Assembly (NCBI GenBank): GCA_039811685.1
Contig: JBDHZC010000002.1
Coordinates: forward strand, 520,371-584,370
From: Armatimonadota bacterium
Lineage (GTDB): Bacteria; Armatimonadota; UBA5829; DSUL01
Direction: 5' to 3'
Length of the DNA stretch: 64,000 nucleotides
Shown in pieces: positions 8,201-41,497 of the stretch. The number at the start of each line of letters is the position of its first letter. The stretch's first letter is position 1. Under the pieces are notes generated by a model. It ran no database searches, was not told the origin of the DNA, and worked only from the letters and a program-made list of their open reading frames with translations. Made by a program: the position numbers and the translations under genes.

Positions 8201-8239
8201 TGCGATCAGACTGCTGCGTACGATTGTGCGACTTTTCAT
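5234..8239 (-). CDS. Secreted repeat protein (1001 aa). Signal peptide (MKSRTIVRSSLIAWVALAGCALIGEARA), then about 14 copies of a 55-60-aa repeat (P-x-[VI]A-W-N-G-x-x-[YF]-L-V-V-W-x-D-x-R...D-I-Y-G-x-R), probably a beta-propeller-like fold of unassigned family. Carries the conserved roughly 190-aa C-terminal module shared with 13203-17252 and 17663-19753.
   Basis: ORF 5234..8314. The internal ATG at 8239 is preceded by a GAGG RBS and followed by a canonical signal peptide. Repeat motifs are read directly from the translation. The C-terminal 190 aa align to the C-termini of two other proteins in the window. Confidence 0.75.
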   Translation of the reverse strand: MKSRTIVRSSLIAWVALAGCALIGEARAAEIAAGPEFPVGQVSVAAPFTQEAPAVAAGGTGYLVVWQDSRNRLNSSNDPDTGYDIYGIFLDSSGVPAMGEAFLISSTSSGGHAARDQMNPAVAWNGSNFLVVWSDRRAVDSKPHIYGARVSTSGSILDPDGFPISITAPINPNNPVPEQYLPAVASNGTDWHVVWQENQGTGFDIVGARVTAAGAVTNRSAIAFTADNQQNPDIAWNGTNYVVVWEDQRNSESSDTDIYGCRINSSTQKQGGDTLISNRAGAPAAGALGPQLSPSVACDSTGTAIIVWQDGRGSDLDIYGTRYTTAGSVVDTGGKSIFPGSGDQEIPDITWDGTQFMVVWRDRQVGTRYIKGCRLNSSAQTLDLQPFPVVTNASTGNRGPRIAPGLVAWYTIDPTNSDVFVTKMNVFGGIVSTNLVSSAIQSQPSYAACWNGNGYGVVWADRRNGYYQIYGARVDSNGIVQDAQGILLAAGAEQLEPAIAWSGSGYLVAWKEFIGYSYDIRGVRLDANMQPVGSPILIASADLDQSQPSIAWNGTKYLVVWRDQRTGLAPNYFTDIMGTFVTSAGALMPLSGVVSGALGDQLEPSVASDGTDFMVVWQDQRSGQGDIYATKVLNNGSIGQAAGVQLSSAPSLKAQPKIAYNGSEYLVVWSDARNNYVFDIYGTRLSTAAAVVGSDLAIVTAPNEQSAPSLCWAGSNYIVAWQDNRAAVSNYDIYLTRLNAAGIVIDANPTVMASSNYSEYAPVIAGGASAQAVFYSRFKNASKRLVGRTLNDPNAIVVPTIEAAKALSDGTSVSISGKVAIAGTDQLGGIFYIEEPNRVAGIKVVTNANVQEGNVVDIMGTIETVGSERQITASNVTVVNPAGVIPAPLTMRSFSIGGTGLLINTNIGSAFLGSNNVGLLIRMAGKVTYVGTGAEPFFYLDDGKALDDGSGHQGVKVQCGSLTKPALGDALIVTGVSSSESSGTTLRRRILARKQSDIAAP

Positions 8240-8690
8240 GAATCCTCTACCTCTATCGGGCTCGCCAGAGTACCTGGCGGCCTCTCCCTGCTGTCGCAAT
8301 GGAGCCAGAACCAAAATCGTCTCCTGTTCCGCTACCTGTCAGGCGAAAGCAAGCGCGACGAACGATCCACAGCGATCTCTCCCTCGCAATGAAGCAGCCA
8401 ACTGCTCCACACGCGCGGAAACAAACCAAGGGCTAACCAGTAGGGGCGCACAAACAATAGCAGCACTGAGCGTGCAGGCTACGTGACGCCACCGCGAAGA
8501 GAGGTGACGAAACGCATGCCACTTCAGTTCAGATTTGGAGTTGTGTCCCAGGTTAGCGGCAATCCAGCATTCTGGCCGGCTGCCCGATCTTCAGTTTGCG
8601 TCCAGACCCGCGCAACGCCTCTGGCGTAGCGGCTTCTCCTTTCGGGCCTGGCGCAAAGAAATCTGTTTGGCTGGCAAAGAGCCCCGAAGC

Positions 8691-9329
8691 TTAGCCTGCC
8701 TTCTTCTCACCGTAGTCCGGCATCTTTCGCATCGTCATCCCCTTAGGGAGATCAAACTTTGAGTCCGCTACGGGGACACCGGTCTTGTAAGACTTGTAGG
8801 TGTAGGTCACCGTGTCCGTAGCCTTCACGCCAGTCGTGATAAGCTTCAAAGGTTCATAGCTGACGGGCCTCACCCACAGCTTGCACTTCCACTTTGTCTT
8901 GGACTCGGTATAGGTGTACACGTTGGCTGGCTTTCCACCGATTTTTTCCGTTCCCACCTTCCTGGCGCCCTGGCTCTGGAGAAATTTCTGAACGTTGCCA
9001 ATCGGTCCAGGTACGTAGCTCATAGGAGTATCGCGAAGAGTACCCCTGGGATATTCCACAATGAACTTTCTCGCGCTGTTCACCATGAAGGTGCCTTTGG
9101 AGTTCTTAATTGCCTGCAGCCTTATTCCCGGTGAGTCCATATCCCAGTAGAAGAAGTCGCCCTTGATAGTCATGGAACGAGGACCCATATCACCCTGAGG
9201 AGACTTCGCCGAGACCTGATAAACTGTAGTGTCCGGCTTTGCGGACTTGGAAGGCTTAACCGGTGCGGCCAGTACAGCCTGAGATGCCAGAAGTGCGGCC
9301 AGAAGCCCACCTGTAATGGTCTTGTTCAT
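8691..9329 (-). CDS. Secreted hypothetical protein (about 212 aa), Lys/Thr/Tyr-rich. Possibly a LolA-like or lipoprotein-sorting fold; tentative.
   Basis: ORF 8691..9371. The ATG at 9329 is preceded by GAGGAGAGAA and followed by the signal peptide MNKTITGGLLAALLASQAVLAAP. No recognisable catalytic motif. Confidence 0.6.
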   Translation of the reverse strand: MNKTITGGLLAALLASQAVLAAPVKPSKSAKPDTTVYQVSAKSPQGDMGPRSMTIKGDFFYWDMDSPGIRLQAIKNSKGTFMVNSARKFIVEYPRGTLRDTPMSYVPGPIGNVQKFLQSQGARKVGTEKIGGKPANVYTYTESKTKWKCKLWVRPVSYEPLKLITTGVKATDTVTYTYKSYKTGVPVADSKFDLPKGMTMRKMPDYGEKKAG

Positions 9330-9920
9330 TTCTCTCCTCATGCAATCAATGAAACGCGCCACGCAACACATTCAGCCTCGAAGAACAGCCAGCACGCGCA
9401 CGGACCTAAACACCTGTCACATCTTTGGGTAGCCCGATGGTATTGTGCCAAGTTCGGCAGCGGAACCCTCTATAGAAAAACAGCATCTGGGAAGCGCCCG
9501 GCCAGTCTCCCGGCGCTTTGCGCGTAAGGAATCCGGACTTGTCAGAATGACGCTGTACGAACCACGCGCGGCTTCGTGAGCTTTCAGGAGGCCTGAAAAA
9601 CGGCGGCCAGGCTTCATGGCTTATGAAATCTGCAGGCGACAGGCGACCGCGAGTCGGCCCGCCCACTCGTCTCTGCCTCTAATTCATGATAACCCACGAT
9701 TGTTCAGTTGTGGAGGCCAATTCTGACGTGAGGACGAGTATCTCCGACCTTCAGAGGCTGTGAAAACCAGGCTGATGAGGAAGGCGCTCTATGGGCATCA
9801 GCGCGTTCACGAACTCTGGATCGCCTCGCAGTTTTTCACGGCTGAGCCAGGCGAGCAATCCTAATCCGGTGCAACGAGTTGAACGCCATCGAAGGCGTTG
9901 CCACCTCCAGCGCGGTCTCC

Positions 9921-10027: not shown

Positions 10028-10927
10028 TTACTTATTGGGCTGAAAGATACCCCCCCTTGTGACGTACTCAATGTCGACCAGGAGCTTGCAGCAGGCCGGA
10101 TTCTCGAGAGTATTCGCGATACCGGTCCCTGGGCCTGTCGGGCTCGGGAACGCCGGAGAGGCGCCGATGCAGGCATCCATAACACCAAGCTCAAAGTCGC
10201 CGAGGATCAGACCGGCGCTCACAGTGTCACCAGCGGAAGCAGCGGCCTCAGCCGAGCTCAGCCAGGAGAGCAACTGCGGATACAGGCACTCGTCGCTGAT
10301 CAGCGGAACCTCGTCCAGACCGAACGGGAGCTCGTGGAACAGGCGGACGGCGTTGGCGATTGAGCCAAGCGTAGCGTCCACATGCCACTTCCACACTTCC
10401 TGATGCACGTAGGCCGGCGGGTTCGGGCCAGCGCCATCGTCATCGTACGGAAGGGTTGTTCCGTAGAGGATGGTCAGGGTCCAGTTCGTGCCAGGCACTT
10501 CATACATCAGCGGCCACCAGGTTCGAATGTTCGCGGTGCCCTGCTGAGGGATGTTCTTCACGGGGAAGACATCGCTGCACTGAATGTACGGAGGCGTGGT
10601 CTTCTGAAGAACAACGTTCTTGATGCTCCACGCATTGCCGGACTGTCCAGCACTGATGTGCGGGATGCCGTCTTTGGCGGCGCCGACAAAGTTCTCCCAG
10701 TTGGCGCCGCCCTCGATGGACAGAACGCCAGGAACGGCGCTGATCACGTCAGAGCCGGCGCCAAGGTAACCCTTGGAGCTGAGATTGGTGCCATTGCTGT
10801 CGCCAGGATAGGCCTGGTAGACGGCGATCGACTGATGGGTGATCGGAACGCTCGCGACGCGGGCAGCATTTGCCCCGACGGAGAGGACCGTAGCACCAGC
10901 CACAAACAGCGGTAGATACTTATTCAA
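10028..10927 (-). CDS. Secreted hypothetical protein (about 300 aa, Gly/Asn/Pro-rich). TTG start with AAGGAGG RBS.
   Basis: ORF 10028..11278. The in-frame TTG at 10927 is preceded by AAGGAGGAACTAC and followed by the signal peptide (M)NKYLPLFVAGATVLSVGANAARVAS. The upstream extension has no signal peptide and no RBS. Confidence 0.6.
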   Translation of the reverse strand: MNKYLPLFVAGATVLSVGANAARVASVPITHQSIAVYQAYPGDSNGTNLSSKGYLGAGSDVISAVPGVLSIEGGANWENFVGAAKDGIPHISAGQSGNAWSIKNVVLQKTTPPYIQCSDVFPVKNIPQQGTANIRTWWPLMYEVPGTNWTLTILYGTTLPYDDDGAGPNPPAYVHQEVWKWHVDATLGSIANAVRLFHELPFGLDEVPLISDECLYPQLLSWLSSAEAAASAGDTVSAGLILGDFELGVMDACIGASPAFPSPTGPGTGIANTLENPACCKLLVDIEYVTRGGIFQPNK

Positions 10928-11707
10928 TGTAGTTCCTCCTTCTCTTGTAGAGAGGCTTGTCCACCCTGCTCTAAAGAGAAACACACTAGTGTCGTTGTTG
11001 TTCAAGGGCTGCGATGTCAAGCTTCCATCCAGCCAGTTTCCAAGGACGCCGGTCTTTAGTGACCTGGCACCTATCCAACCCAGGATCTGACTCATCCGCA
11101 TGGCGTCTTTACCAAATCCTGCACGTGCCCTGGTCGGGAAAACCGGCCGGCTGTATGGCCTTTTCGTCTCGTCTCCTGACGTCTTGACCTTCCCCTGTGC
11201 CTGAGCTTGTGAAAGAACAGGCTTTTGCCTTTGCGGGCATCTGGAGAGAGTCTCAATCTGTCGAAGCCGAGAGCTCAACGCTTGGCCCTTATGTCGTCTG
11301 CTCGGGTGGGGGGGCTAGGCCGCAGGCTCTCCGTTGAGGCATTGGAGAGTTAGTCCCTAACGGCGCAGCTTGCGCCACCCTCACAAAGCTGACTCCAGTA
11401 TACCTTAGTTGGTAGACCGTCAAGGGGCAATTGGCGAAATTTCAAGCCTGTACGGCTCGAATCAGGTATTTATAACAGGATGCTTTTCACCTCAGCGACG
11501 CAACCCGTCTCCATTCCTGACCTTCTTGCCACCTGGATCGGTATCGCTTGCGCGCACTCCGACCCTCAGCCTTGCACCCGCTCCTCATCTCAACTGCGCT
11601 GCTTGCGCGACGCCGTGTTCCGAGTTAGCGGTCTGTCATTCAGTATAAAGCTCAGCGCGTCGTTTGTGTCCTAGCAACAATACCAGAAGTTACCTGTAGC
11701 AGATCAC

Positions 11708-11838: not shown

Positions 11839-13077
11839 ATGAGTAGAAAAAACGAACAACAGTTTAGAAGCGCCATCAGACTTTGGAGCCTCGCGGCAAG
11901 TGTTGCCATTGCGGCATTCTGCGCGACCTCCGGATTCGCGGATGCGTTTTTCCACATGGACGCCCAGCGCACCGGCCGTGCGGAGTTTTCCGGTCCATCA
12001 ACCGGCGCAGTCCTCTGGCGTTACCAGACCGGAGGGCTGATAACCTCATCTCCCTCTGTCGGGCCAGATGGCACTATCTATGTGGGGTCCTTTGACCGAA
12101 AGCTGCACGCCGTACTTCCCACCGGAACCCGTCAGTGGGCCTTCACCACAGGTGGCTACGTCGGATCGTCTCCCGCGGTGTCCAGCTCTGGGGAGATATA
12201 CTTCGGTTCTGACGACGGGTGGATGTACGCCCTGAGCCAAAGTGGCGCGCTGGACTGGAGCTTCCAGACACCGGTACTGGGGCCGACTCCGAGCGGCCCG
12301 ATCTCGAGCGCTCCTGTTCTGAGTGGCAATGATCTGATCTTCACGGCGGATGCCGGACGAGTGTGGAATCTCAACTCTACCACAGGCGCCGCGCAGTGGA
12401 ACTTCCTGATGCCTCAGTTCTCCTACTCTTCACCCACAATCGGCCACAACGGCGACATCTATGTGGGAGACGGAAATGGCAAAGTGTACGCCCTCAGCGC
12501 TGCCGGCCAGCAGCTCTGGTCCTATCAGACCGGAAACCAGATATTTGCGGCGCCAGCGGTCGGCGACGATGGCACTATCTATGCGACCAGCTCCGACGGC
12601 TACCTTTACGCACTTAACCCAAATGGCACACTCAAGTGGAAATATGCCGCTCCGCCAGGAATCGGCACCACTCCAGCCATTGGGCACGATGGCGCCATTT
12701 ATATTGGTGGCGCTGACAGTAAGATTCACGCCATCAGCCCGACCGGACAGCGGAAATGGATTTTCCACACCAATGGGCCAATCTACAGCTCTCCGCTGGT
12801 GGACAAGGACGACAACATCTACTTCGTGAACAACGGTGGGGTATTTCAGTCTGTCACACCTCAGGGAGCGCTGAGGTGGAGTGTTGGCATCGGCTCTGTG
12901 TCTTACTCATCTCCGACAATGGGACCGGACGGCATCATCTACGTGGGAGCGAACGACAACTATCTCTACGCCATCGGCCCCTCTGGCTACGTCATCCCTG
13001 AGCCTTCCAGCCTGCTGCAGTTGGCAGGTCTGGTGAGCGGCCTGGCCGCCTTCGGAAGACGCCGCATCCGGCGCTAA
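11839..13077 (+). CDS. PQQ-like (BamB/YxaL-type) beta-propeller repeat protein with a C-terminal PEP-CTERM sorting domain
   Basis: Signal peptide; about 8 repeats of SSP-x-[VI]-x-x-D/G-x-IY-x-G-S-x-D-x-x-[LV]YA-x-x-x-x-G. The C-terminus reads PEPSSLLQLAGLVSGLAAFGRRRIRR (PEP motif, TM helix, Arg-rich tail). Paralogous to the propeller region of the giant protein at 4030-5151. Confidence 0.9.
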   Translation: MSRKNEQQFRSAIRLWSLAASVAIAAFCATSGFADAFFHMDAQRTGRAEFSGPSTGAVLWRYQTGGLITSSPSVGPDGTIYVGSFDRKLHAVLPTGTRQWAFTTGGYVGSSPAVSSSGEIYFGSDDGWMYALSQSGALDWSFQTPVLGPTPSGPISSAPVLSGNDLIFTADAGRVWNLNSTTGAAQWNFLMPQFSYSSPTIGHNGDIYVGDGNGKVYALSAAGQQLWSYQTGNQIFAAPAVGDDGTIYATSSDGYLYALNPNGTLKWKYAAPPGIGTTPAIGHDGAIYIGGADSKIHAISPTGQRKWIFHTNGPIYSSPLVDKDDNIYFVNNGGVFQSVTPQGALRWSVGIGSVSYSSPTMGPDGIIYVGANDNYLYAIGPSGYVIPEPSSLLQLAGLVSGLAAFGRRRIRR

Positions 13078-13202: not shown

Positions 13203-16200
13203 CTACGGATGGGGCACGGCCACGGTGATGTCTGAAGAGCGGCGCACTCTTACAACACGCCTGTAGCCGCCGCTTCCGTCCGGCTCCATTGTGCTGATTC
13301 CTGTAACTGTGACAAAGTCCCCTGCCGCGGGCTTTGCGAGTGTCCCACACAACACCTTCGCCGTAACTGGATCGCTATTGTAGCTTGACCCGTCATTGAT
13401 GGTAAACGAATCCGCAGAGACCGACTCTACCTGGCCACCCACCTTCACGAGAAGTCCGATGTTGTTCAACCCGTAGCCCGTGTGCACACCTGGCGTATTA
13501 GGATTCAGCGCACCGCCGCCCAGTGAGCTCAACCGCATCACGAGCGGAAGTATGGCCGGGTTGCCGGAGAGATTCACCGTGACCGAGCTTGCGTCAATAA
13601 AGCGCTCCCCGTTCAACGTCTGGATTGTGCCGCGCACCGTCACGCTGTCACCCTCCTGGAGAGTCTGTGCCGTGGCGACGCGGATGCCGGAGCTGCGGTT
13701 GGTTTCCTCGATGTAGAGATACTGTGGATACTCCTGCGTGGATCCCGCTGTGACAATCTTGCCGTTTAACAGCACCTGATCACCGTCCGGCAGCGCCTTT
13801 ATGGCAGAAATAGACGCTGTGCCCGAAAGCAAACCGAGGAAATCCGCCTCGGAGCTCATCCCCCACACCGCATTGACAGTCTGCGACGCAGGCGAGAATG
13901 TCCAGGACGGCTTAGCGGCGCTGAGGGAATAGAGTCCGGGAGCGAGATCATCAAGTGTGTACGATCCGTCAAGCGCGGTAAGCGCGGACTTCCCGCCCGG
14001 GCTGGCCGTGATGGTCACTCCGGGCACCCCGTGCTGATCAGTCACGGCCTCATAGCGGTCTGTGATGAAGCCCCAGTCCGAGTTCCCAGGGTCTGACGTC
14101 AGCACAATCTTCAGAGAATCACCGTTCACCCACTCAGACCAGACGTCACTGTAGTGCCCGGTGAAAGTATCAATGATCTGATCGCTGGAGTCCGTAACAT
14201 CAATGAAGTCAAATCCGGGCTCCACCTCCAGGCGCGTGAAGTGCACCCGGATCTTGGAAGCCCCTTGCGGCCCCTGCACAGTGTAGGTCTCCGAGACGTT
14301 GTCACCATAAGGATGCTGAGACTGCAGTACAACCGCTTCCTGCACAGTCGTCCCGACAGTCACAGACCCCGTGATCGTCGCTGGCGGACGCGCTGTGAAG
14401 TTAACTCCCGAGAGCGTGCTGCCCGGGGAAGGCTCAGCGCTCCGGGCGTTTGGCTGGAACTGCCAGTTTGGATACGAAGGCGTCACGGTGTAGGACACAG
14501 GCTCCAGCCCCGACAGAGTATAAGCGCCTCCCACGCCGGTAGTTGTGGTATGGTTGCCTGGCTGAGCTGTAACAGTGACGCCGGCAGGAGCGGGCTCTGT
14601 CAACAAGTCCGTTTCGTAGCCATCCATCCTGAAGCCGTAGTCCACACCTGTTGCGTCCGTCACCAGATGCAGTACCAGCGCATTGCCGGGCACCCACTGG
14701 CTCCAGTAGTCCGTCTTGTTGCCGGTGATGTCCTGATAAGGAGTCCCGTCAGCATCCTCAATGTAGAGATGATCCAGACCATTCTGCAGCGCCACTTCGT
14801 CAAAGTGAGCGCGGATATGCGTAGCGCCCACAGGTCCTGTCACCGTGTACTTCACATCGGAGTTGTTCTGGTAGTTGTGCGGTGATTCGACTTCGTAAGC
14901 CGTCACACCGCCCAGAGCTTTTTGAATGACACCGCTGATAGACGCAGGGGCCGCAGAGCCGGTGAAATCAACCCCCGGCGCCGCCTGATCTGCCACAACT
15001 ACTGCCGTACTTGGCGGAGCGAACGTCCAGCCGGTCTTGGCGGCAGAGACGGTGTAGCTGTCCGCCGGCAGGCGCAGAGTGTAGCGTCCGTTAGCGCCCG
15101 TTGTCGTGTCTTTGGTCGCGCTGGACCCTGTCGCTGTGACCGTGGCTCCCGCGATGGGATTTCCGGACGTGGACAGCAGCGTTCCCGTAATATAGGAACC
15201 TGGAAGGTGACCGGAGGCCACAAGCGCAAAAGGCTGCGGGCCGCCTGGAACGCTAAAGCCTGTGACCGTGACCGTATAAACGCCCGTCAAAGGCACGCTG
15301 ACGTCCACGCTTTCAACATTGTTGACGCTGTCTGTGGCGCCGTTGCCGCGGTAAACTGTGCCGTTGGGAGCCGTGACAGAGAGATTCAGATCATTCACCA
15401 GCTCTTTGGCTGCCAGAGGAGAGCCTGGAGGATCAGTCCACACCAGCGTCACCGCAAACGGAGCGTCGCTTCCAAGCACCGTGTACTGATACGTGCGCGT
15501 CTGCCCCGTTGAAATACCGGAGGTTTCGTCCACATATTCGATCTGCCTGGGCGCTGGCGGGTCTATGGCGGCATTCACATCCACGCGCCCCCAGCCTTCA
15601 ACGCTGTTCGGGCGCACGGGAATCTCAGGAGGCACGGCTCCGATATACTGCCCCGGCGCCATGTCTTTTGCGCTGTTGAGCAGCGCCGCCTTCACGAGCG
15701 CGGCGCTTGGAGCTATGCCAAACGATGAGTTCAAATACTGTCTGAGGAGGACGGCCGAGCCTGCCACCGCCGGAGCAGAAAAGCTGGTGCCACCCCAGTA
15801 GCTGTAGTGAGAATCATACGGCATCCATCCCGGGTTGCCGACAAGCTGGCTGCTCAAAGCCACAATATTTGTGCCGGGCGCGCAGATATCGGGCTTGATG
15901 CGACCATCGGCGCATGGGCCGCGGCTGCTCCACGCCGCCATGCCGCTCGGATTGTCAGAAATTGGATCGCTGTTTATCGGCGCCTGTGGGAAATCTGACC
16001 CCCAGTACGTCCCGTAGGACTGGGAGCGGCCGGTGGCGCGCAGGCTCTCAGTGGCGCCCACGGAAATACAGTTTTTCGCAGTGGCGGGGGAATAAAGCGC
16101 GCCGGAGTCAGTCCGTCCGTCAGCGTTTGCGTCCACGCCGTCGTTTCCTACGGGAAAGACCAGAACCGCGTCTTTATGATTCCAGACGAAATCGTCCACC

Positions 16201-17252
16201 TGCTGCGAAAGTGTTGTGTACTTCCCCTCCACAGGGGATCCCCAACTGTGGTTCTGAACGCGGGCGCCGTCCAGATAGGGCGGCTGGAAGAGCTGCGAGA
16301 GAGTCACGGGCGGATAGACAAAGGAGCTTCCGTCACCTATGGACTGCATGATAATGGAAGCCTCAGGCGCAACCCCGCAAAAGGAATCTGTATACGTGTG
16401 GGAGCCAGCGTTGGAGCCAGACAGCGCTCCCGAGCCTGCCGCCACAGACACGCAGAAAGTGCCGTGCCCGCTCAGGTCGCTCCAGTCGTCTGGGCGGCGC
16501 AGAGCGTACGTCTTGATAACGCGGCCGGCCAGGTCCGGGCTCAGTGTAGCCAGGTTGCCAGTGTCCAGACCGGAATCCGCAAAAGAGATGATCTCACCCG
16601 CGCCAAAAAGCCCGGTTCTGTTGCGAACGGGTGTGACACCGATGATGGACTGCACAACGTTGTTGGCAGCGCGCGGAGGCGCCCACTCTTCAATCCAGCG
16701 CACTTCCTCGAGACCCGCAATCCGGTCCAGAGCTCTGGCCGGGATTGTGGCCAGCAGAATGCCGCCCGCCACATCGCTGTCGCGCAACAACTCGCCACCG
16801 CTTGCGCTGATGACCTGGATGACGGTTGTGGCTGCTTCGTCACCAAAGACCCGGATGAGGACTGTCAGGCTCTTCTGCTGAGTCTTTTTTTTCAGGTGAG
16901 GATCAATACGATAGCGAGCATGCAGCCTTCCCATCCAGGCGATACAGGCAAGCCCGCGCACCTTGGCAATCTGAGAGCGTTTGAGACGCGCTATGTAGGC
17001 GTTCTCCGGCAGGTAGTCCCGCAGCTTGACACCCATCTTCTGAAGTGAAGCCTTCCACTCTGGTCGGGGTGTCCCGCTGAACTGGAGGATGTAGTATCCA
17101 CCGCGAGAGGGCGTCAGGCTCTGAAGCTGCACTGTGCTCTTTACTTCCCTGTCCACCGGTCCAGCTTTCAGCAGCAGAGGCGCGGGGGCGCTCCAGACGC
17201 TGGTTGCAGCCATCAAACAAAGGAAGACAGAGATCAGAAAGGGTCTGTTCAT
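13203..17252 (-). CDS. Secreted S8 family subtilisin-like serine peptidase (about 1349 aa). Has an N-terminal prodomain-like region, Asp/His/Ser catalytic triad motifs, carboxypeptidase-regulatory-like (Ig-like) domains and two CUB-like domains. Carries the shared roughly 190-aa C-terminal module.
   Basis: ORF 13203..17360. Internal ATG at 17252 followed by signal peptide MNRPFLISVFLCLMAATSVWSAPAP. Catalytic motifs: ISFADSGLDTG (Asp), LSGHGTFCVSVAAG (His), WGGTSFSAPAVAGSAVLL (Ser). CUB-like units: ESPHNYQNNSDVKYTVTGPVGATHIRAHFDEVALQNGLDHLYIED... and QSQHPYGDNVSETYTVQGPQGASKIRVHFTRLEVEPGFDFIDVTD... Confidence 0.85.
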   Translation of the reverse strand: MNRPFLISVFLCLMAATSVWSAPAPLLLKAGPVDREVKSTVQLQSLTPSRGGYYILQFSGTPRPEWKASLQKMGVKLRDYLPENAYIARLKRSQIAKVRGLACIAWMGRLHARYRIDPHLKKKTQQKSLTVLIRVFGDEAATTVIQVISASGGELLRDSDVAGGILLATIPARALDRIAGLEEVRWIEEWAPPRAANNVVQSIIGVTPVRNRTGLFGAGEIISFADSGLDTGNLATLSPDLAGRVIKTYALRRPDDWSDLSGHGTFCVSVAAGSGALSGSNAGSHTYTDSFCGVAPEASIIMQSIGDGSSFVYPPVTLSQLFQPPYLDGARVQNHSWGSPVEGKYTTLSQQVDDFVWNHKDAVLVFPVGNDGVDANADGRTDSGALYSPATAKNCISVGATESLRATGRSQSYGTYWGSDFPQAPINSDPISDNPSGMAAWSSRGPCADGRIKPDICAPGTNIVALSSQLVGNPGWMPYDSHYSYWGGTSFSAPAVAGSAVLLRQYLNSSFGIAPSAALVKAALLNSAKDMAPGQYIGAVPPEIPVRPNSVEGWGRVDVNAAIDPPAPRQIEYVDETSGISTGQTRTYQYTVLGSDAPFAVTLVWTDPPGSPLAAKELVNDLNLSVTAPNGTVYRGNGATDSVNNVESVDVSVPLTGVYTVTVTGFSVPGGPQPFALVASGHLPGSYITGTLLSTSGNPIAGATVTATGSSATKDTTTGANGRYTLRLPADSYTVSAAKTGWTFAPPSTAVVVADQAAPGVDFTGSAAPASISGVIQKALGGVTAYEVESPHNYQNNSDVKYTVTGPVGATHIRAHFDEVALQNGLDHLYIEDADGTPYQDITGNKTDYWSQWVPGNALVLHLVTDATGVDYGFRMDGYETDLLTEPAPAGVTVTAQPGNHTTTTGVGGAYTLSGLEPVSYTVTPSYPNWQFQPNARSAEPSPGSTLSGVNFTARPPATITGSVTVGTTVQEAVVLQSQHPYGDNVSETYTVQGPQGASKIRVHFTRLEVEPGFDFIDVTDSSDQIIDTFTGHYSDVWSEWVNGDSLKIVLTSDPGNSDWGFITDRYEAVTDQHGVPGVTITASPGGKSALTALDGSYTLDDLAPGLYSLSAAKPSWTFSPASQTVNAVWGMSSEADFLGLLSGTASISAIKALPDGDQVLLNGKIVTAGSTQEYPQYLYIEETNRSSGIRVATAQTLQEGDSVTVRGTIQTLNGERFIDASSVTVNLSGNPAILPLVMRLSSLGGGALNPNTPGVHTGYGLNNIGLLVKVGGQVESVSADSFTINDGSSYNSDPVTAKVLCGTLAKPAAGDFVTVTGISTMEPDGSGGYRRVVRVRRSSDITVAVPHP

Positions 17253-17662
17253 AAGGAGTCCGCCAGGTACACTTGAGGTAGTGGAGGTTACTGGAACAAC
17301 GAATCTGGCCGTTACCGGCACACGCGAAAACAGCCGGGCCCGACACGCAAAACCCCACACATGGAAGTATACCGTACTGCCTGCGCCGAGTATCCAAACA
17401 GGTTTTCTTCACAGGGAGAAGACAAAGGGCTGGAGCCTGGCTGGCCGCCATTACTGTGACTGTAATCTCCATCCGCACGCGAATCGCCGAATACGGCAGC
17501 GAACCTCGATCAATATCCGCTCCGCACAGGCAAAGGTACTGGTTTTGTCCGCGAAGCGCCCCGCTGAGGGCACGAAAGACGTATAATAGATAAGAACCAC
17601 TTCTTCCCTGACCCTGCGTCCGCCGCACAGTCACAAACGAGACCAACCACAGGAGCCTTCCT

Positions 17663-19753
17663 TTGCGACTTATCCACCTGCGACTCGCCACTTTCGCCCT
17701 TCTCGCCGCCCTGTCTGCGCCAGGCTCGGCCGCTATCTACGTCTCTCAGTCCGCGCCCGGTCCGCTGCACAACGGCGCGTCATGGCTAAGCGCCTACAAG
17801 TCACTGTCGCAGGCGCTCAGTGTGGCGACAGCTGGGTCTCAAGTGTGGGTAGCGCGGGGGACATACGTCGGGACGTTTACGGTGCCGGCGAACGTCGCTG
17901 TGTTCGGAGGCTTCGCGGGCACGGAGAGCGCTCTGGCCGGCAGAAATCCCAACAGCAACCGCACAATTCTTGACGGTGCGCTGGCCGGCTCTGTCGTGAC
18001 GATAAACGCAGGATCTCAGGTGGACAGCTTCACGATCCGAAACGGCCGCAGCTCATCCGGAGCCGGTATCGTCGGGACTAACGCGATCGGCGCGATTATC
18101 TCCAATAACACCATCGAGAATAACACCAGCACATCCGATGGAGGCGGAATCTATCTGTACTCCAACGGCTGGTCCAACAGGGTCATCATCAGGGGCAATC
18201 TCGTACGAGGCAATTCTTCCGGTGGCAGTGGAGGGGGCATGGGACTCTACGGTCCTGGCCATACGGAAGCGGACTCTCCACAGCTCTTTGACAACGTCGT
18301 GCGTGACAACAAAGCCGCTACGGATGGTGGCGGTATCTGGGCCTACTTCTCAACACCGCGCGTTGAGCGCAACATGATCTGGAAAAACCGCACAGGCAGA
18401 AACGGCGGCGGTCTGTTCATCTATCACAGCTACGCAACAATCATCTGGAATCACTTCTGGATGAACCGCGCCGACTCCCCCACAAAGGGCGGTGGCGCGC
18501 TGTTTATCGACTTCCACTCGACGCCAACCGTTGCCGACAATATCTTTGACCGCAACACTGCCTTTCAGGGCGGCGGCACGTGGAACGAGTACCAGAGCCA
18601 GGCTAAAACCTGGCGCAACATCTTTACAGGCAATACAGCCACTTCCGGCGCGGGCATCTACATTGCTCAGGGCGCCTCACCGGAAGTTACCAACAGTCTT
18701 TTCCTTCGCAACAAAGCCGCCTACGGCGGCGCGGTAAGCGCGGACTATCCGTCCTCCTCACCCGGTTTCAAGTTTACGCACAACACTGTCGTTTCCAACT
18801 CTGCGACGGTCTCTGGCTCAGCGCTGTCTCTTACGCGCTACGCCAGCGCGGGTGTGGCTAACAACATCTTTGCGCACAACTCCGCCCCGGATGGCACGAT
18901 AGCGCGAGACTCCACCTCCTGGCCAAACCTGGTGGGCAACGACTTCTGGCAAAATACAGGCAGCAATCTCGCCGGTGGGACTGATCCAGTTGGCACGCTT
19001 GGCAACATCTCTGCCGACCCGTCCTTCGTCAACCCCTCAATTGACTGCTACCAGCTTCAGCCTGGCTCCGCCTGCATAGACACGGCCAGCGCCAGTGCCG
19101 CAACCACCTATGACCTCAACAACCGCCCGCGCCCGTTCGACGGAGATTCCAACGGATCCAGCCTTCCGGACATCGGCGCCTATGAATACGGAACCGGTCC
19201 GCTGGTGCTCTTTGCTGTGCAGCAAGCCTATCAGCTTCCGCCTGGCGTCAGTGTGGCTATCTCTCCGCGTGTCGTGAACGGCTCGTGGGAACAGGGCTTC
19301 TTCGTGCAGGACTTTGACAGGACGCGCGGACTGAAGATCGAAACCTCCGCAACGCCTCCGCCTGCAGGACGTGTGGTGAGCGCACAGGGAACGCTCTCGG
19401 ACGCCGCAGGGTACCGCACACTCTCCGCGGCTTCGTGGGCCGGTACGGACACAGCCTTCGCTCTCGCCCAGCCCCTGGCCATGGCGCTACCGCGTGCAGC
19501 GGAGACGATCGGGCTGTCCAACATCGGGCTGAGCGTGAGCATAACCGGCAAAGTGGAAAACCTGGAAACAGACGGATTCTGGATGAGTATTAACGGACAG
19601 TCACTCACGCGCATCTACTGCGATCCTGCGTGGATTCCCGTCTCCGGCAAGACCTGCACGGTGATTGGAGTCGTTGACTACGACCCCGTCTCTGCGCCTG
19701 GCGGACGCATTGTCCGAGCGCGTACAGCCTGGGACATCATCCAGCAGGACTGA
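17663..19753 (+). CDS. Secreted right-handed parallel beta-helix repeat protein (NosD/choice-of-anchor-like). Carries the shared roughly 190-aa C-terminal module.
   Basis: TTG start at 17663 with AGGAG RBS 7 nt upstream. Signal peptide MRLIHLRLATFALLAALSAPGSAA. Many GGG-containing beta-helix turns (NNTIENN, DGGGIY, NGGGLFI, GGGALFI, GAGIYIA), ending in DIGAYEY. Its C-terminal 190 aa align with the C-termini of 5234-8239 and 13203-17252. Confidence 0.85.
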   Translation: MRLIHLRLATFALLAALSAPGSAAIYVSQSAPGPLHNGASWLSAYKSLSQALSVATAGSQVWVARGTYVGTFTVPANVAVFGGFAGTESALAGRNPNSNRTILDGALAGSVVTINAGSQVDSFTIRNGRSSSGAGIVGTNAIGAIISNNTIENNTSTSDGGGIYLYSNGWSNRVIIRGNLVRGNSSGGSGGGMGLYGPGHTEADSPQLFDNVVRDNKAATDGGGIWAYFSTPRVERNMIWKNRTGRNGGGLFIYHSYATIIWNHFWMNRADSPTKGGGALFIDFHSTPTVADNIFDRNTAFQGGGTWNEYQSQAKTWRNIFTGNTATSGAGIYIAQGASPEVTNSLFLRNKAAYGGAVSADYPSSSPGFKFTHNTVVSNSATVSGSALSLTRYASAGVANNIFAHNSAPDGTIARDSTSWPNLVGNDFWQNTGSNLAGGTDPVGTLGNISADPSFVNPSIDCYQLQPGSACIDTASASAATTYDLNNRPRPFDGDSNGSSLPDIGAYEYGTGPLVLFAVQQAYQLPPGVSVAISPRVVNGSWEQGFFVQDFDRTRGLKIETSATPPPAGRVVSAQGTLSDAAGYRTLSAASWAGTDTAFALAQPLAMALPRAAETIGLSNIGLSVSITGKVENLETDGFWMSINGQSLTRIYCDPAWIPVSGKTCTVIGVVDYDPVSAPGGRIVRARTAWDIIQQD

Positions 19754-19856
19754 GCTCAGCGCTCAGACGCCAGGCCGTTGCACGCGAACAGCCGAAGCGA
19801 TTGGTCTGGCGGCTGTCTGGCAGGACTCTGGGGGAGGTCTGGCTAAGACAGCAAGC

Positions 19857-21578
19857 ATGAAACCTTTCTTGACACCGATTTTCGCCTGCGCCATTGGCGC
19901 GGCTGCTCTGGCCACAGGCTGTCTGCCTGCGTTTGCGGTTACGCCCTCTGAGGTCGCGTCATCCCTGACAGTAAACGTGCGCGACTTCGGCGCGAAGGGT
20001 GACGGCCGGACTGACGATACAGGCGCCTTTGAGGCGGCGATGAAAACGCTTGCCGGGAAAGGCGGTATCGTCTCGGTTCCCGCTGGCAACTACATGATAA
20101 AGACTCACCTCACTGTGCCTGCGATGGTGACTCTGGAAGGCGTATGGCGCTCTCCGACCTCCTGGACGCAGAACAAGGGCGCCACACTTCTGGCTGTGGA
20201 AGGCGCCGGCTCCGAGGAGGGTCCCGCCTTCATCACCCTGAACGCCAACTCAACCATCAAAGGATTGACGGTCTTTTATCCAAATCAGGACCCGTCAAAA
20301 ATCGCCGCCTACCCCTGGTGCGTGCGCAACGCTCCCGGCGACAACTGCGCGATTATTGACTGCCTGCTCGTGAATCCCTACCAGGCCGTGGACTTCGGCA
20401 CAAACCCGAGCGGGCGGCACTACATTCGCAATCTGTACGGCCAACCTCTGCGGCGAGGCATTTTTGTGGACAAATGTCTTGACATCGGGCGCATTGAGAA
20501 CGTCCACTTCTGGCCCTTCTGGACATGGGAGGAAAAAACTGGCATCCGTGATTGGCTATGGAAGAACGGAGAAGCTTTTATCTTCGGGCGCACAGACTGG
20601 GAGTACGTGTTCAACACCTTCTGCTTTGGCTACCGGGTGGGTTACAGGTTCATCAAGACCAAAGACGGCGCAATGAACGGCAACCTTCTGGGTATCGCGG
20701 CTGACGCTGCCAACATTGCGGTGCTCGTGGAAGAGACCCAGCTTTTCGGGCTTCTTATCACCAACGGCGAGTTTGTAGCCATGGGCGGGCCCAAACCTAC
20801 GGAAGTAGTCGTCAAAGATACACACACGGGCACAGTACAGTTCTCAAACTGTTCCTTCTGGGGGCCGGGCTACCAGATCGCTTCTATTGCCGGCAGAGGC
20901 AACCTCACCTTCAACGCATGCAACTTTGTGGAGTGGGATACCGCCAATCAGAGCGTCCCCGCTATTGACGTCTCAGGCGGCAAGGTGACAGTGAGCGCAT
21001 CGTACTTCATGAAAGACGCGCCGCAGATGAACCTGCGCGCAGACGCCCAGAGCGCAATCTTTATGGGCAATCACGTCGCAGGCAATGTGAAAGTTACAAA
21101 CCCTGCAAGTGCGAGCCTGCAGGTGGGACTCAACGCTGAACCAAAGCGTCCAGTCGAGCAGAAAGGCGCAATTGTCGTGGACGATTCTGATGGACTGCCA
21201 GAAGTCTCGTTCACCAAGGGCTGGATTCAAACCAGGCACCCCGGAACCTATCATCTGGGCACGCACTGGGCATGGAAGGGCAGCGGCACAGAACGCGCCA
21301 CCTTCCGCCCACTCATCCCCCGCACGGGCAGCTACGACGTTTACGTCTACGTCAGCGCCGACGCCAATGAAGACCACGCCACCAACGCGCCGGTTACCGT
21401 GCGCTCCCGAGCTGGCCTCAAGACTGTACACGTTGATCTCAGCAAAGCCAAAGGCGCATGGAAGAAGATTGGAACCTTCACCTTCGCCGGTGGGCAACGC
21501 GCGGAGATAACCTTCACTAACAACGCCAACGGCAATGTGGTGGCGGACGCTGTGAAGCTGACGCCCCACTCAAAGTGA
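19857..21578 (+). CDS. Pectate lyase superfamily (Pectate_lyase_3 / GH28-related beta-helix) protein, probable lipoprotein, with an extra C-terminal roughly 110-aa beta-sandwich-like domain
   Basis: Internal ATG at 19857 after the stop of the upstream gene. N-terminus MKPFLTPIFACAIGAAALATGC has a lipobox-like LATGC. Hallmark DFGAKGDGRTDDTGAFEAAM motif. C-terminal ...YDVYVYVSADANEDHATNAPVTV...VVADAVKL. Confidence 0.75.
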   Translation: MKPFLTPIFACAIGAAALATGCLPAFAVTPSEVASSLTVNVRDFGAKGDGRTDDTGAFEAAMKTLAGKGGIVSVPAGNYMIKTHLTVPAMVTLEGVWRSPTSWTQNKGATLLAVEGAGSEEGPAFITLNANSTIKGLTVFYPNQDPSKIAAYPWCVRNAPGDNCAIIDCLLVNPYQAVDFGTNPSGRHYIRNLYGQPLRRGIFVDKCLDIGRIENVHFWPFWTWEEKTGIRDWLWKNGEAFIFGRTDWEYVFNTFCFGYRVGYRFIKTKDGAMNGNLLGIAADAANIAVLVEETQLFGLLITNGEFVAMGGPKPTEVVVKDTHTGTVQFSNCSFWGPGYQIASIAGRGNLTFNACNFVEWDTANQSVPAIDVSGGKVTVSASYFMKDAPQMNLRADAQSAIFMGNHVAGNVKVTNPASASLQVGLNAEPKRPVEQKGAIVVDDSDGLPEVSFTKGWIQTRHPGTYHLGTHWAWKGSGTERATFRPLIPRTGSYDVYVYVSADANEDHATNAPVTVRSRAGLKTVHVDLSKAKGAWKKIGTFTFAGGQRAEITFTNNANGNVVADAVKLTPHSK

Positions 21579-21608
21579 GGCGGGAGGCCCACATCGAAGC
21601 GACTTATC

Positions 21609-22697
21609 TCAGCCTTTTACGCCTGAGATAACCACACCCTGAATGAAGTAGCGCTGGGCGGCGGCGAAGAGAGCCAGAAGCGGGAGCATGACGACAGTGG
21701 CCGCCGCCATCAGCAGCTGCACATCCACCGAGTGCTCTCCCTGAAACGCATACAGCCCCAGCGCAAGCGTGCGCAGATCAGGGTTTCCCAGATAAATCAG
21801 TGGGCCGAGAAAGTCATTCCAGTGCCCCATGAAGCTGAAGATCGCTACCGTCGCTACAGCCGGCTTTATCTGGGGCAGAATCACCCGCCCGAACACCTGC
21901 GCCGTGGATGCCCCGTCAATTCTGGCCGCTTCGTCCATCTCCAGAGGGATGCTCATGAAGTACTGGCGCAAGAGAAAGACAAAAAACCCTGACGTCGCAA
22001 AAAAAGCCGGTACGGTGAGGGGCAGGAAGGTGTCGTACCACCCAAGCGTGACAAATATCTTGAAGAGCGGCACCATAGTTACCTGTGCCGGGAGCATCAT
22101 CGTCGAAAGCAAGACAATAAACAGAGCGTTGCGCCCCGGAAAGCGCAGTCGCGCGAATCCAAAGGCGACCAGGCAACAGCTTGCCACCTGCCCCACCAAC
22201 GCAAAAAAGGTGATGAGCAGCGTGTTGCGCAGATACAACAGAAAGCGGAAATTGGGCGGTGTGAGCGCCTCCGTGTAGTTCTGCCAACGGGCCCCCCATG
22301 TCTTGACCGGCGCGACGCTGTCCTCACTGAGCGTCTGCGTCTGTGCGGGAAGATATGGCAGAGTATCGGGGCGCTCCCGGCCAAGCACGGCCAGGCGCAG
22401 CTTTCCCGCCGGCAGCCGCTCAAGCATCGCGAGATACAGCGGCTTGTCACCGGAAGTGCGATAGACCGGATACTCGGATTTTCCCACCTTCACAACGACC
22501 TGACGCCTCGGAATCCACTCGATGTTGCGGCTGAAGATCTGATCTTTGTCCTTCAGCGATGTGGACAGCATAAAGGCAAAGGGAATCAGGAACACTGCTG
22601 TGCCCGCAAGCAGCAGGGCGTAAGCCACCGCGCGTCCGCGCGCCTCACTTCTGCGGCGGCTGGCGTAAAGACTTCCATGCGCTGGAGCCGCGCTCAT
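21609..22697 (-). CDS. Carbohydrate ABC transporter permease (MalG/UgpE-type) with an unusually long insertion after TM1
   Basis: EAA loop AARIDGAS, six TM segments and a conserved C-terminal ...QRYFIQG. About 95 aa of extra periplasmic sequence lie between the first two TM helices. Confidence 0.9.
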   Translation of the reverse strand: MSAAPAHGSLYASRRRSEARGRAVAYALLLAGTAVFLIPFAFMLSTSLKDKDQIFSRNIEWIPRRQVVVKVGKSEYPVYRTSGDKPLYLAMLERLPAGKLRLAVLGRERPDTLPYLPAQTQTLSEDSVAPVKTWGARWQNYTEALTPPNFRFLLYLRNTLLITFFALVGQVASCCLVAFGFARLRFPGRNALFIVLLSTMMLPAQVTMVPLFKIFVTLGWYDTFLPLTVPAFFATSGFFVFLLRQYFMSIPLEMDEAARIDGASTAQVFGRVILPQIKPAVATVAIFSFMGHWNDFLGPLIYLGNPDLRTLALGLYAFQGEHSVDVQLLMAAATVVMLPLLALFAAAQRYFIQGVVISGVKG

Positions 22698-23644
22698 CCC
22701 CGCGCCCTCTCACCCTCGTAGTACACCCAGCGTTTGCTTGTCCCGAATACTACCAGCGTCAGCGCCAGAATCACCAGAAAAAGAATCCACGCCATCGCGC
22801 AGGCGTAACCCATGCTGAAATACTGAAACGCCTTCTGGTACAGATAGAGCACGTAAAACAGAGTGCTGTAGGCGGGGCTTCCCGCGCCGCCAGTGATGAC
22901 GAAAGCGCTGACAAATACCTGAAAGCTGGCGATGATCCCCATGACGACATTGAAGAAGATAGTGGGGCTGATCATGGGAAGCGTCACGTTAACGAACTTG
23001 CCCCACGCCGCCGCCCCGTCCAGCTCCGCCGCTTCGTAAAGCTGCGTCGGCACACTCTGCAGGCCCGCCAGGTAGATGATCATTCCAGCGCCCGCGCCCC
23101 AGAGACTCATGATCACGAAAGCCGGGATCGCCCACTCCGGACTTGTGAGCCACTGCGGACCGTGAATGCCAAACTTCGCCAGAATCAGATTGATGATGCC
23201 GGAGTCCGGGTTGAAAATCCACTTCCACAGCATAGCCACGGCCACTCCAGGCAGAATGGCAGGCAGATAGAAGATGGCGCGGAAGAATGTGAGCCCCTTG
23301 ACACGCTGATTTAGCAGGACGGCGATAGACAGCGACGTGATCACGCCGATGGGCAGCGACATGGCTGTGTACTTCATCGTAACGCCCAGGGACTTGACGA
23401 AGCGGAAGTCGTGCCCGAACATCTGGCGATAGTTGTCCAGCCCGACAAAGCGCGGCGGATTGAGCATGTCCCAGTCGCACAGGCTCACGTAGAGGGAGAA
23501 CAGCATCGGCCCAAGCGTAAAGACCAGAAAGCCGATAATCCAGGGAGCTATGAAGATATAGCCGTCAATAGCCTCGCGCCGGGAGAGCGACCACTTGCGC
23601 CTTCCAGCGGCAGAAGGTGGAGAAGAGCTCACTGAGCCTCGCAC
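22694..23644 (-). CDS. Carbohydrate ABC transporter permease (MalF/UgpA-type)
   Basis: Typical MalF-like TM topology and EAA-like loop (YEAAELDGAAAWGKF). Overlaps the downstream permease by 4 nt. Confidence 0.9.
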   Translation of the reverse strand: MRGSVSSSPPSAAGRRKWSLSRREAIDGYIFIAPWIIGFLVFTLGPMLFSLYVSLCDWDMLNPPRFVGLDNYRQMFGHDFRFVKSLGVTMKYTAMSLPIGVITSLSIAVLLNQRVKGLTFFRAIFYLPAILPGVAVAMLWKWIFNPDSGIINLILAKFGIHGPQWLTSPEWAIPAFVIMSLWGAGAGMIIYLAGLQSVPTQLYEAAELDGAAAWGKFVNVTLPMISPTIFFNVVMGIIASFQVFVSAFVITGGAGSPAYSTLFYVLYLYQKAFQYFSMGYACAMAWILFLVILALTLVVFGTSKRWVYYEGERARG

Positions 23645-40741: not shown

Positions 40742-41149
40742 CTAAGAACTCTTCTCCTGAAACCGCTCACTCGCCGCATTTCTGTAAATGGAAACGACAA
40801 GGGAAATCTGTGCCGCTACCACACCGGCGATGAACGCCCACACAACGAACCCGCGCCACTTCACAAGCCCGCCTATCAGGACCATCATCAGAAGGACTCT
40901 GGACAAAAGCAGCAGACCGCGAACAAATCTTCCCCCTGCCGGATTTGCGCCCTGCGCCATAGTCAGACCCATACGGACATAGGCGTTACACGAAAAAGTC
41001 AGCAGGACCAGCGACACAGAACCCACCAGAGCGCCGGTTATCTCGCTCAGCGCGGCCTGCCCCAGACCCGCCATCACAAGCCCGACAGCGATGAAAGCCT
41101 GGCCCGTCAACAAAACGCGCCAATAGGTTGACAAGTCAAAACGTCGCAT
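40742..41149 (-). CDS. atpI: ATP synthase protein I-like membrane protein
   Basis: Small 4-TM protein immediately upstream of atpB, abutting its start. Confidence 0.6.
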   Translation of the reverse strand: MRRFDLSTYWRVLLTGQAFIAVGLVMAGLGQAALSEITGALVGSVSLVLLTFSCNAYVRMGLTMAQGANPAGGRFVRGLLLLSRVLLMMVLIGGLVKWRGFVVWAFIAGVVAAQISLVVSIYRNAASERFQEKSS

Positions 41150-41155
41150 GGGTTT

Positions 41156-41446: not shown

Positions 41447-41466
41447 GAGCGGCGCGTAACGACGGA

Positions 41467-41497
41467 GTATAACATGTGGGAGAGGCTATTCGCCAAG
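41467..41497 (-). promoter_or_regulatory. Candidate sigma70-like promoter for the atp operon (minus strand: TTGGCG-19 nt-TATACT) inside an AT-rich island
   Basis: RC of 41467-41497 reads cacTTGGCGaatagcctctcccacatgtTATACT. It sits about 25-50 nt upstream of the atpZ start. The local AT-rich stretch 41470-41560 stands out against the high-GC surroundings. Confidence 0.3.

Follow-up and report, generated by a model that had tools for sequence, protein, structure and literature searches.

The protein encoded on the minus strand at positions 13203..17252 of the window, the 64,000-nucleotide stretch of DNA analysed here, comes from an Armatimonadota bacterium and is a secreted subtilisin of the KP-43 type (MEROPS S8) built of many domains. 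It carries two units that profile searches and structure comparisons support as true though divergent CUB domains, apparently belonging to a large cysteine-free prokaryotic subfamily. CUB domains are ligand-binding modules best known from animals. Apart from these units the protease is ordinary, and their recognition fills an annotation gap, since neither CUB is picked up by Pfam and the deposited protein is named only an "S8 family serine peptidase".

The open reading frame spans 13203..17360, and the ATG at 17252, read directly, gives a complete CDS of 1349 amino acids (aa) plus stop, which is exactly the span given in the preliminary description; unless stated otherwise, all features below lie on this minus strand. 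The product is identical to the NCBI protein 'MAG: S8 family serine peptidase [Armatimonadetes bacterium]' (100% identity and coverage, equal length of 1349 aa). Its domain order is signal peptide, pro-region, catalytic and jelly-roll domains, a stalk arranged as CarboxypepD_reg–CUB1–CarboxypepD_reg–CUB2–CarboxypepD_reg, and a tandem OB-fold module. The predicted Sec signal peptide (aa 1–21, 17190..17252; MNRPFLISVFLCLMAATSVWS, cut before AP) was recognised by inspection from a positive n-region, a hydrophobic core and small residues preceding the cut; a lipoprotein signal was rejected, as the Cys of the signal peptide has no preceding lipobox. The putative N-terminal pro-region (aa 22–196, 16665..17189) has zero Pfam matches, and its boundary is placed where it is because N197 aligns with residue 1 of the mature SubHal and KP-43 chains. 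Scanning the surroundings of the gene for promoters and terminators yielded nothing informative.

The catalytic domain and the C-terminal jelly-roll domain that follows it (aa 197–680, 15213..16664) are of the KP-43/SubHal type. Pfam places Peptidase_S8 (PF00082) at aa 218–531 with 132.9 bits against a cut-off of 21.8, and the catalytic triad of D226, H263 and S490, in the Asp–His–Ser order of subtilisin and accompanied by the oxyanion-hole residue N370, aligns with the DTG, HGT and GTS motifs of SubHal in phmmer comparisons. The same program matches the protein to SubHal (5fax) at 1.4e-80 and to KP-43 (1wmd) at 1.8e-78, the alignments covering residues 1–430 of the 433-aa SubHal chain and 1–431 of the 434-aa KP-43 chain, an end-to-end reach that takes in the KP-43-type C-terminal β-barrel domain. 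A weak Pfam match to PPC at aa 565–685 sits in this jelly-roll, and a PPC or P-domain identity for the CUB units was rejected.

Carboxypeptidase-regulatory-like domains, which the preliminary description had also proposed, are found by PF13620 in three stretches, with 88.2 bits over the whole protein against a gathering score of 32.3. Searched as isolated segments, these transthyretin-like domains are domain 1 at aa 688–764 (14961..15191; 55.8 bits), domain 2 at aa 890–953 (14394..14585; E 3.8e-7, 30.8 bits) and domain 3 at aa ~1076–1136, also delimited as 1070–1136 (13845..14027; E 4.2e-7, 30.7 bits); matches to the β-sandwich families SdrD_B and EMC7 overlap domain 3. The two copies of a CUB unit with its next domain are 36% identical over 154 aa (E 1e-33), a likeness that is real rather than due to chance and which indicates, at the level of sequence, that the stalk was built through duplication of a CUB plus CarboxypepD_reg cassette. 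The C-terminal tandem OB-fold module (aa 1147–1349, 13206..13814) was assigned from an AF2 model (pLDDT 92.3) that in Foldseek resembles tandem-OB proteins and also matches YgiW (TM 0.70 normalised to YgiW length, over a 90-column alignment), and it has weak sequence matches to YgiW/BOF/DUF5666. This module is common to two further open reading frames of the window, 5234..8314 (minus strand) and 17663..19753 (plus strand).

CUB-like unit 1 occupies aa 782–883 (14604..14909) and CUB-like unit 2, a member of the family alignment, aa 970–1071 (14040..14345). They are about 100 aa each and 36% identical, and the peptides by which they were initially picked out are found at aa 789 (ESPHNYQNN) and aa 977 (QSQHPYGDN). 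The disulfide cysteines are missing as had been described, with zero cysteines in either unit. Scanning with Pfam, which had been suggested as a check, bore out the CUB reading for the orthologues and not for the window units themselves: 36 of 67 orthologous units match PF00431 at E <= 0.01 (best 3.5e-7), while unit 1 alone reaches 15.8 bits (E 0.019), below the gathering score of 21.4, unit 2 alone has no PF00431 match, and the whole protein has no CUB match at E <= 1. The CUB assignment therefore rests on profile and structure evidence, the gathering score being treated as an operational threshold and membership being claimed at the superfamily or divergent-subfamily level only. A profile of the 67 orthologous units searched against the PDB matched cubilin (2.4e-11), MASP-1 (1.2e-6) and neuropilin-1 (7.6e-6), as well as MASP-2/-3, neuropilin-2, PCPE-1, enteropeptidase, TSG-6 and Kremen, such that at E < 0.01 all matches are CUB proteins except for WD40 repeat artefacts. 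Relatives from an exhaustive search score 80, 53 and 50 bits against PF00431, above the cut-off.

Could the units nevertheless be an unrelated β-sandwich (PPC, P-domain, MAM or discoidin) with a chance likeness of motifs? Their sub-threshold Pfam scores and absent cysteines would fit such a reading, as would the single-sequence PDB searches, which returned only a chitinase for unit 1 (E 0.02) and WD40 repeats for unit 2. The chitinase likeness has no family-profile support and was rejected as chance; so was that to WD40, a short TGHxSxVWS-like match summed over many repeats, in which no single stretch is significant and to which the family profile again gives no support. No competing Pfam family, CBM families included, was found for the 67 orthologous units, and the outcome named beforehand as fatal to the CUB reading, a profile assignment to some other β-sandwich family, did not arise. 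Two structure comparisons, made independently, agree with the family profile and with the Pfam census in pointing to CUB, other jelly-rolls falling clearly behind. A non-CUB identity is thus refuted within the limits of computation, and we give it a vanishingly small chance.

The cbCUB subset, a term of Gaboriaud et al. 2011 as cited in PMC8051872, corresponds to the eight-stranded form of the domain without strands β1 and β2 (PMC8051872). The AF2 model of unit 1 (pLDDT 95.1, pTM 0.88) is predicted to adopt just this form, a CUB jelly-roll β-sandwich with eight strands by DSSP. Fold comparison, the second check that had been suggested, also came out in favour of CUB, the top 25 Foldseek matches to the model all being CUB domains (TM 0.64–0.74).

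In CUB domains of the C1r/C1s/MASP/cubilin/PCPE type, the bound partner contributes a Lys or Arg side chain, which is clamped by the acidic residues that coordinate Ca2+. Unit 2 has the full signature of such a site, with Y982, E1011, D1015, D1054 and N1057 forming the Tyr/Glu/Asp/Asp/Asn constellation beside G1056, whereas the site of unit 1 is degenerate (Y794, Q823 replacing Glu, D827 and D866). The acidic positions fall at profile columns 46, 50 and 89, which by HMMER alignment and the published list of MASP-1 ligands (Glu49/Asp57/Asp102/Ser104/Asn105; PMC5300068) equate to Glu49/216, Asp57/226 and Asp102/263 of rat MASP-1. Among orthologous second units these columns hold E, D and D in 75/75 cases each; first units vary, with M38/E17/Q14/L8 at column 46 and D37/N36 at column 89, the Glu ligand having been lost in the window protein and most orthologues.

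The reading that we favour, by a little better than an even chance, is of a KP-43-type subtilisin with a duplicated CUB stalk in which CUB2 would be a Ca2+-dependent exosite that keeps a protein substrate or surface partner near the protease. CUB1, with its Glu lost, would more likely make a contact that does not depend on Ca2+, or act as a structural spacer, the transthyretin-like domains would space the modules, and the tandem-OB tail would localise the enzyme. Both Ca2+ binding and ligand binding by CUB2 are predictions, and so is the protein-binding or substrate-targeting role that the preliminary description had suggested.

Invariance of the acidic triad could also mirror Ca2+-dependent folding or stability, which is frequent among secreted subtilases, rather than ligand capture. 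The CUB units might then be structural only, rigid Ca2+-stabilised beads that together with the transthyretin-like domains make a protease-resistant stalk with no specific ligand and hold the catalytic head off the cell surface. The regular alternation of CUB and CarboxypepD_reg, a copy number that ranges from one to three among orthologues, the good conservation of unit 1 even though its Glu ligand is gone in most of them, and the ordering of loops by Ca2+ in CUB domains (PMC5300068; PMC8051872) all agree with such a stalk. The invariant E/D/D of second units, set against decay in first units, suggests however a functional selection specific to position, and cbCUBs usually bind their ligands at the Ca2+ loops, as is seen in all liganded tandem CUB structures (PMC8051872); we consider a purely structural stalk rather unlikely.

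There are also precedents for CUB domains in enzyme latency, namely the scaffold role of the CUB in the Cap-CUB pro-region of Pseudomonas aeruginosa protease IV (bioRxiv 10.64898/2026.09.07.749839) and the part of ADAMTS13 CUB1-2 in global latency (PMC8051872), and by analogy the units might fold back on the catalytic domain as an autoinhibition module, maybe removed at maturation. The window CUBs, however, lie C-terminal of the catalytic domain with two other domains between, a distinct N-terminal pro-region is already present, and unit 2 keeps the Ca2+ motif that the ADAMTS13 CUBs lack, all of which makes autoinhibition improbable. A carbohydrate-binding role, in which CBM-like or spermadhesin-like jelly-rolls would target the enzyme to glycoproteins or to a matrix of polysaccharide, is a still fainter prospect, given that the top sequence and structure matches are all protein-binding CUBs and that zero CBM families appear in Pfam scans of the 67 units. 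It would suit the pectate-lyase-like β-helix proteins encoded by neighbouring genes, and β-sandwich modules do often bind sugars in a Ca2+-dependent manner. The gene neighbourhood offers no ligand or substrate candidate for the subtilase.

The unit is present in 83 of the best 120 homologues, usually in two copies. The exhaustive search returned 6198 representative protein clusters at E <= 1e-3, whose split between bacteria or archaea and eukaryotes is judged solely by cysteine content and by the names of a few clusters; the best-scoring clusters are mostly cysteine-poor, with archaeal proteins among them (Methanosarcina, Thermoprotei), and of the 631 domains in the best 145 relatives, 296 are free of Cys and 228 contain a single one. 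Word-indexed homologue searching found nothing with unit 1 alone, the index being too coarse for a divergent 109-aa domain, and three matches only with the unit alignment, one of them from a Thermococci archaeon. A scan of genome contigs with an eight-sequence subset, which gives no taxonomic breadth, found only three loci, in Armatimonadota or unclassified bacterial MAGs. Given the number of clusters, and a subtilase–CUB protein catalogued in Bdellovibrio (PMC2605481), the earlier remark that bacterial occurrences are uncommon was overstated.

Symbiont genomics treats CUB domains as "eukaryote-like" markers (PMC7848895). The size of the cysteine-poor subfamily, archaeal members included, argues against taking microbial CUB matches for host mimicry, and equally against recent transfer from animals. 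Tentatively, as a possibility well short of an even chance, the cysteine-free CUB with a Ca2+ motif may be an old module, widespread in bacteria and archaea with thousands of clusters, rather than a rare "eukaryote-like" acquisition. Were this true, the Ca2+-dependent Lys/Arg clamping of complement proteases, cubilin and PCPE-1 would predate animals and would be put to use here as a protease exosite, and the metazoan disulfide CUBs would descend from the prokaryotic lineage. The gene provides a clean, testable prokaryotic case, in which a copy with the invariant Ca2+ signature stands beside a paralogous copy without it.

Compared with KP-43 and SubHal, both from Bacillus, the protein is alike in its catalytic and jelly-roll domains and keeps their Asp/His/Ser motifs, but the solved chains of 433–434 residues match its aa 197–680 only, and it has ~670 extra residues comprising the three CarboxypepD_reg domains, the two CUBs and the tandem OB module. 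The combination of subtilase and CUB is uncommon yet of an already recorded kind, a 'Subt-CUB' architecture having been listed in 2008 for Bdellovibrio bacteriovorus NP_967057.1 by Tripathi and Sowdhamini, who called the role of CUB in prokaryotes unclear (PMC2605481). That protein, compared here by description alone, is likewise a prokaryotic S8 subtilase with a C-terminal CUB fusion, but its listed architecture has one CUB and lacks CarboxypepD_reg and OB modules, whereas in the window protein the core is of the KP-43 type and duplication of a cassette has given two CUBs. Bacterial proteases of clans S1 and M6 also contain CUB or CUB-like domains, namely P. aeruginosa protease IV, Bacillus anthracis InhA2 (4yu5) and Vibrio cholerae VesC (6bqm); the CUB of protease IV sits in an N-terminal inhibitory pro-region, unlike those described here, and the window unit is structurally less similar to the domains of these three proteins than to metazoan Ca2+-binding CUBs.

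With the latter, as found in C1r/C1s, MASP-1/-2/-3, cubilin, PCPE-1 and neuropilin, the window units share the eight-stranded jelly-roll of ~100 residues and the signature positions (S)P-x-Y, F-x-(L/I)-E, (Y/F)-D-(F/Y)-V-x-V and S-D...G-F, and unit 2 also matches the Ca2+ ligands of the C1r/C1s/MASP-type domains. They differ in their prokaryotic host, in an identity of only ~15–24% and in a D-x-W-S-x-W-V-x-G segment, specific to the subfamily, where the metazoan Cys-Gly...Pro segment aligns. Since the two canonical disulfides are missing and many relatives are cysteine-poor too, the units are not canonical metazoan-type CUBs, and they are interleaved with transthyretin-like domains where the metazoan cbCUBs are combined with EGF, CCP or LDLa modules.

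The protease is encoded within a minus-strand open reading frame (ORF) at 13203..17360, in which an internal ATG at 17252 gives a 1349-aa product with the same sequence and length as the NCBI entry "MAG: S8 family serine peptidase [Armatimonadetes bacterium]", so that 13203..17252 (-), as proposed in the preliminary description, is the exact CDS. From its sequence the product is predicted to begin with a Sec signal peptide (aa 1-21), and aa 22-196 are read as a pro-region because residue 1 of mature SubHal and KP-43 aligns at N197. The Peptidase_S8 domain (aa 218-531; Pfam, 132.9 bits) lies within a segment, aa 197-680, that aligns end to end with both SubHal (5fax, 1.4e-80) and KP-43 (1wmd, 1.8e-78), including the jelly-roll domain at the C-terminus of both; D226, H263 and S490 align with the DTG, HGT and GTS motifs of these enzymes. 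Three CarboxypepD_reg domains follow at aa 688-764, 890-953 and 1070-1136, as delimited by Pfam on separate pieces and also recovered as three stretches in a whole-protein scan. Interspersed with them are the two CUB-like units, unit 1 (CUB1, aa 782-883) and unit 2 (CUB2, aa 970-1071); the two peptides originally quoted for them start at aa 789 and aa 977, and neither unit contains a single cysteine, in agreement with the reported lack of disulfide cysteines. The unit regions share 36% identity over 154 aa (BLASTP, E 1e-33), and as the match continues through the domain after each unit, it is a two-domain cassette that was duplicated.

Evidence from single sequences that these units are CUB domains is weak. 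The whole-protein Pfam scan gave no CUB match even at E <= 1, unit 2 alone also gave none, and unit 1 alone matched profile positions 15-108 of 110 at E 0.019 with 15.8 bits, under the Pfam cut-off of 21.4 bits; apart from a chitinase (E 0.02) and a faint match to cubilin, PDB searches with the single units yielded nothing but artefacts from WD40 repeats. Evidence at the level of the family is strong. A full-length search found about 80 Armatimonadota-type orthologues, with the unit present in 83 of the 120 homologues listed, mostly as two copies, and 67 non-redundant units were aligned (alignment A2). When these were scanned singly, 36 of the 67 matched PF00431 at E <= 0.01 (best 3.5e-7) and no other Pfam family had more than one match. 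Searched against all PDB sequences, the A2 profile found cubilin (2.4e-11), along with MASP-1, MASP-3, neuropilin-1, neuropilin-2, MASP-2, PCPE-1, enteropeptidase, TSG-6, Kremen-1 and GPR126. WD40 proteins were the sole non-CUB entries up to E ~0.01, and were rejected as artefacts of their repeats, no single stretch being significant. An AlphaFold2 model of unit 1 with A2 as its alignment has eight strands (pLDDT 95.1, pTM 0.88), and its top 25 Foldseek matches in the PDB are all CUB domains (TM 0.64-0.74). The original observation and its CUB interpretation were correct, and neither profile nor structure searches assigned the units to another beta-sandwich family; that the units are not CUB at all is computationally refuted and scarcely credible.

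The Ca2+ ligands of MASP-1 are Glu49, Asp57, Asp102, Ser104 and Asn105 in CUB1 and Glu216, Asp226, Asp263 and Ser265 in CUB2 (PMC5300068). Counting through the alignment that HMMER gives between the A2 profile and rat MASP-1 places them on columns 46, 50, 89, 91 and 92, with a conserved Tyr at column 17. Among all 160 orthologous units, the 75 second units are invariant at column 46 (Glu49/216; E 75/75), column 50 (Asp57/226; D 75/75) and column 89 (Asp102/263; D 75/75), whereas the 83 first units carry M 38, E 17, Q 14 and L 8 at column 46, D in 81 of 83 at column 50, and D 37 and N 36 at column 89. The corresponding residues are Y982, E1011, D1015, D1054, G1056 and N1057 in unit 2, and Y794, Q823, D827, D866, T868 and G869 in unit 1. 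Ca2+-binding CUBs are without strands beta1 and beta2, possess a conserved motif and as a rule take up ligands at the Ca2+ loops (PMC8051872). Judged by sequence, unit 2 fits the Ca2+-binding class, whereas the site of unit 1 has decayed. That paired copies differ so sharply in this motif is of modest interest. The CUB units might instead form a purely structural, Ca2+-stabilised stalk, a reading that we consider less likely than the one we prefer, in which the stalk would present CUB2 as an exosite.

When 1.84 billion cluster representatives were searched exhaustively with A2 (HMMER), 6198 proteins matched at E <= 1e-3; of these, 2931 do so at E <= 1e-10 and 406 at E <= 1e-30, and many have 3-21 domain copies. 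Among the best 150 matches, 145 were new proteins (631 domains), of which 115 average at most one cysteine per domain and only 4 at least three; E/D/D occurs in 422 of the domains and the Tyr in 605. Some relatives pass the Pfam CUB cut-off (80, 53 and 50 bits), and their partner domains include Trypsin_2, S8, FG-GAP and CarboxypepD_reg. Where members carry a name, which few do, the source is archaeal (Methanosarcina sp., a Thermoprotei archaeon and a Thermococci archaeon). Judged by cysteine content and these few names, the domain forms a large prokaryotic subfamily, and to call CUB domains uncommon in bacteria was an overstatement. It is of modest interest that this subfamily is unexpectedly large and partly missed by standard Pfam thresholds. 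Outside the window, arrays of this cysteine-free CUB subfamily were seen in the archaeal proteins P0134, P0130 and P0269 (Methanosarcina sp., Thermoprotei MAG and Thermococci MAG), one of which has 'PKD domain-containing protein' as its sole annotation.

The C-terminus (aa 1147-1349; 13206..13814 (-)) is confidently modelled as two OB folds (pLDDT 92.3). Foldseek matched it to the tandem OBs of HIN-200, Teb1-AB and SSB and, with a TM of 0.70 normalised to YgiW's own length over a 90-column alignment, to YgiW; sequence matches to YgiW and RPA14 are weak. This module of about 200 aa is common to three large secreted proteins of the window, as it also ends a 1026-aa ORF without Pfam match at 5234..8314 (-) (3e-35) and a DUF1565 beta-helix protein at 17663..19753 (+) (1e-10). 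It is present in CUB-less S8 orthologues too, and orthologues of about 1220 aa retain the first OB only. We read it as a localisation module, possibly a lineage-specific device for anchoring or sorting.

The adjoining genes code for secreted proteins of beta-helix, pectate-lyase-like and PQQ-propeller type. In another Armatimonadota genome the protease orthologue adjoins a 3555-aa PQQ_2 propeller protein (L001 1..7728), and protease plus PQQ-propeller may be a recurring neighbourhood. The gene convergent with the protease, 11839..13077 (+), encodes a PQQ-like beta-propeller protein whose tail resembles PEP-CTERM (VIPEPSS...RRRIRR). Neighbouring genes, in the window or the orthologous locus, hold no pointer to the protease substrate. 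At 19665..21578 (+) a pectate-lyase-like beta-helix is joined to a Golvesin C-terminal domain (93 bits); as listed, this ORF starts about 90 nt before the preceding beta-helix gene ends, so its true start is probably further downstream. For the very large 1395-aa ORF at 27970..32157 (+) and the mid-sized ORFs at 10028..11278 (-) and 8691..9371 (-), Pfam gave no match at E <= 1e-3. In two stretches, 20001..24000 and 40001..42000, the AT skew is strongly positive (0.13-0.20); in the rest of the window it is near zero.

Bacterial subtilases with CUB domains are an already known kind, of which this protease is a further member: a "Subt-CUB" entry exists for Bdellovibrio NP_967057.1, where the role of the CUB was termed unclear (PMC2605481). 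CUB domains are also carried by bacterial alpha2-macroglobulins (PMC9848320) and were classed among "eukaryote-like" domains in sponge Thaumarchaeota (PMC7848895). In P. aeruginosa protease IV, a CUB lies in the pro-region. For the present protease, an autoinhibitory role of the CUB units is improbable, and glycan binding by them seems to us very improbable. What the analysis shows is their homology, their fold and the conservation of their residues; Ca2+ binding, the identity of a ligand and any influence on proteolysis are inferred. The best-supported reading is that of a stalk presenting CUB2 as a Ca2+-dependent exosite, in which the OB tail would be the anchor, CUB1 and the transthyretin-like CarboxypepD_reg domains would be spacers, and CUB2 would grip a basic residue of a protein substrate or partner in a Ca2+-dependent manner, with a possible effect on proteolysis, on the model of MASP-collagen, cubilin-intrinsic factor and PCPE-1-procollagen binding.
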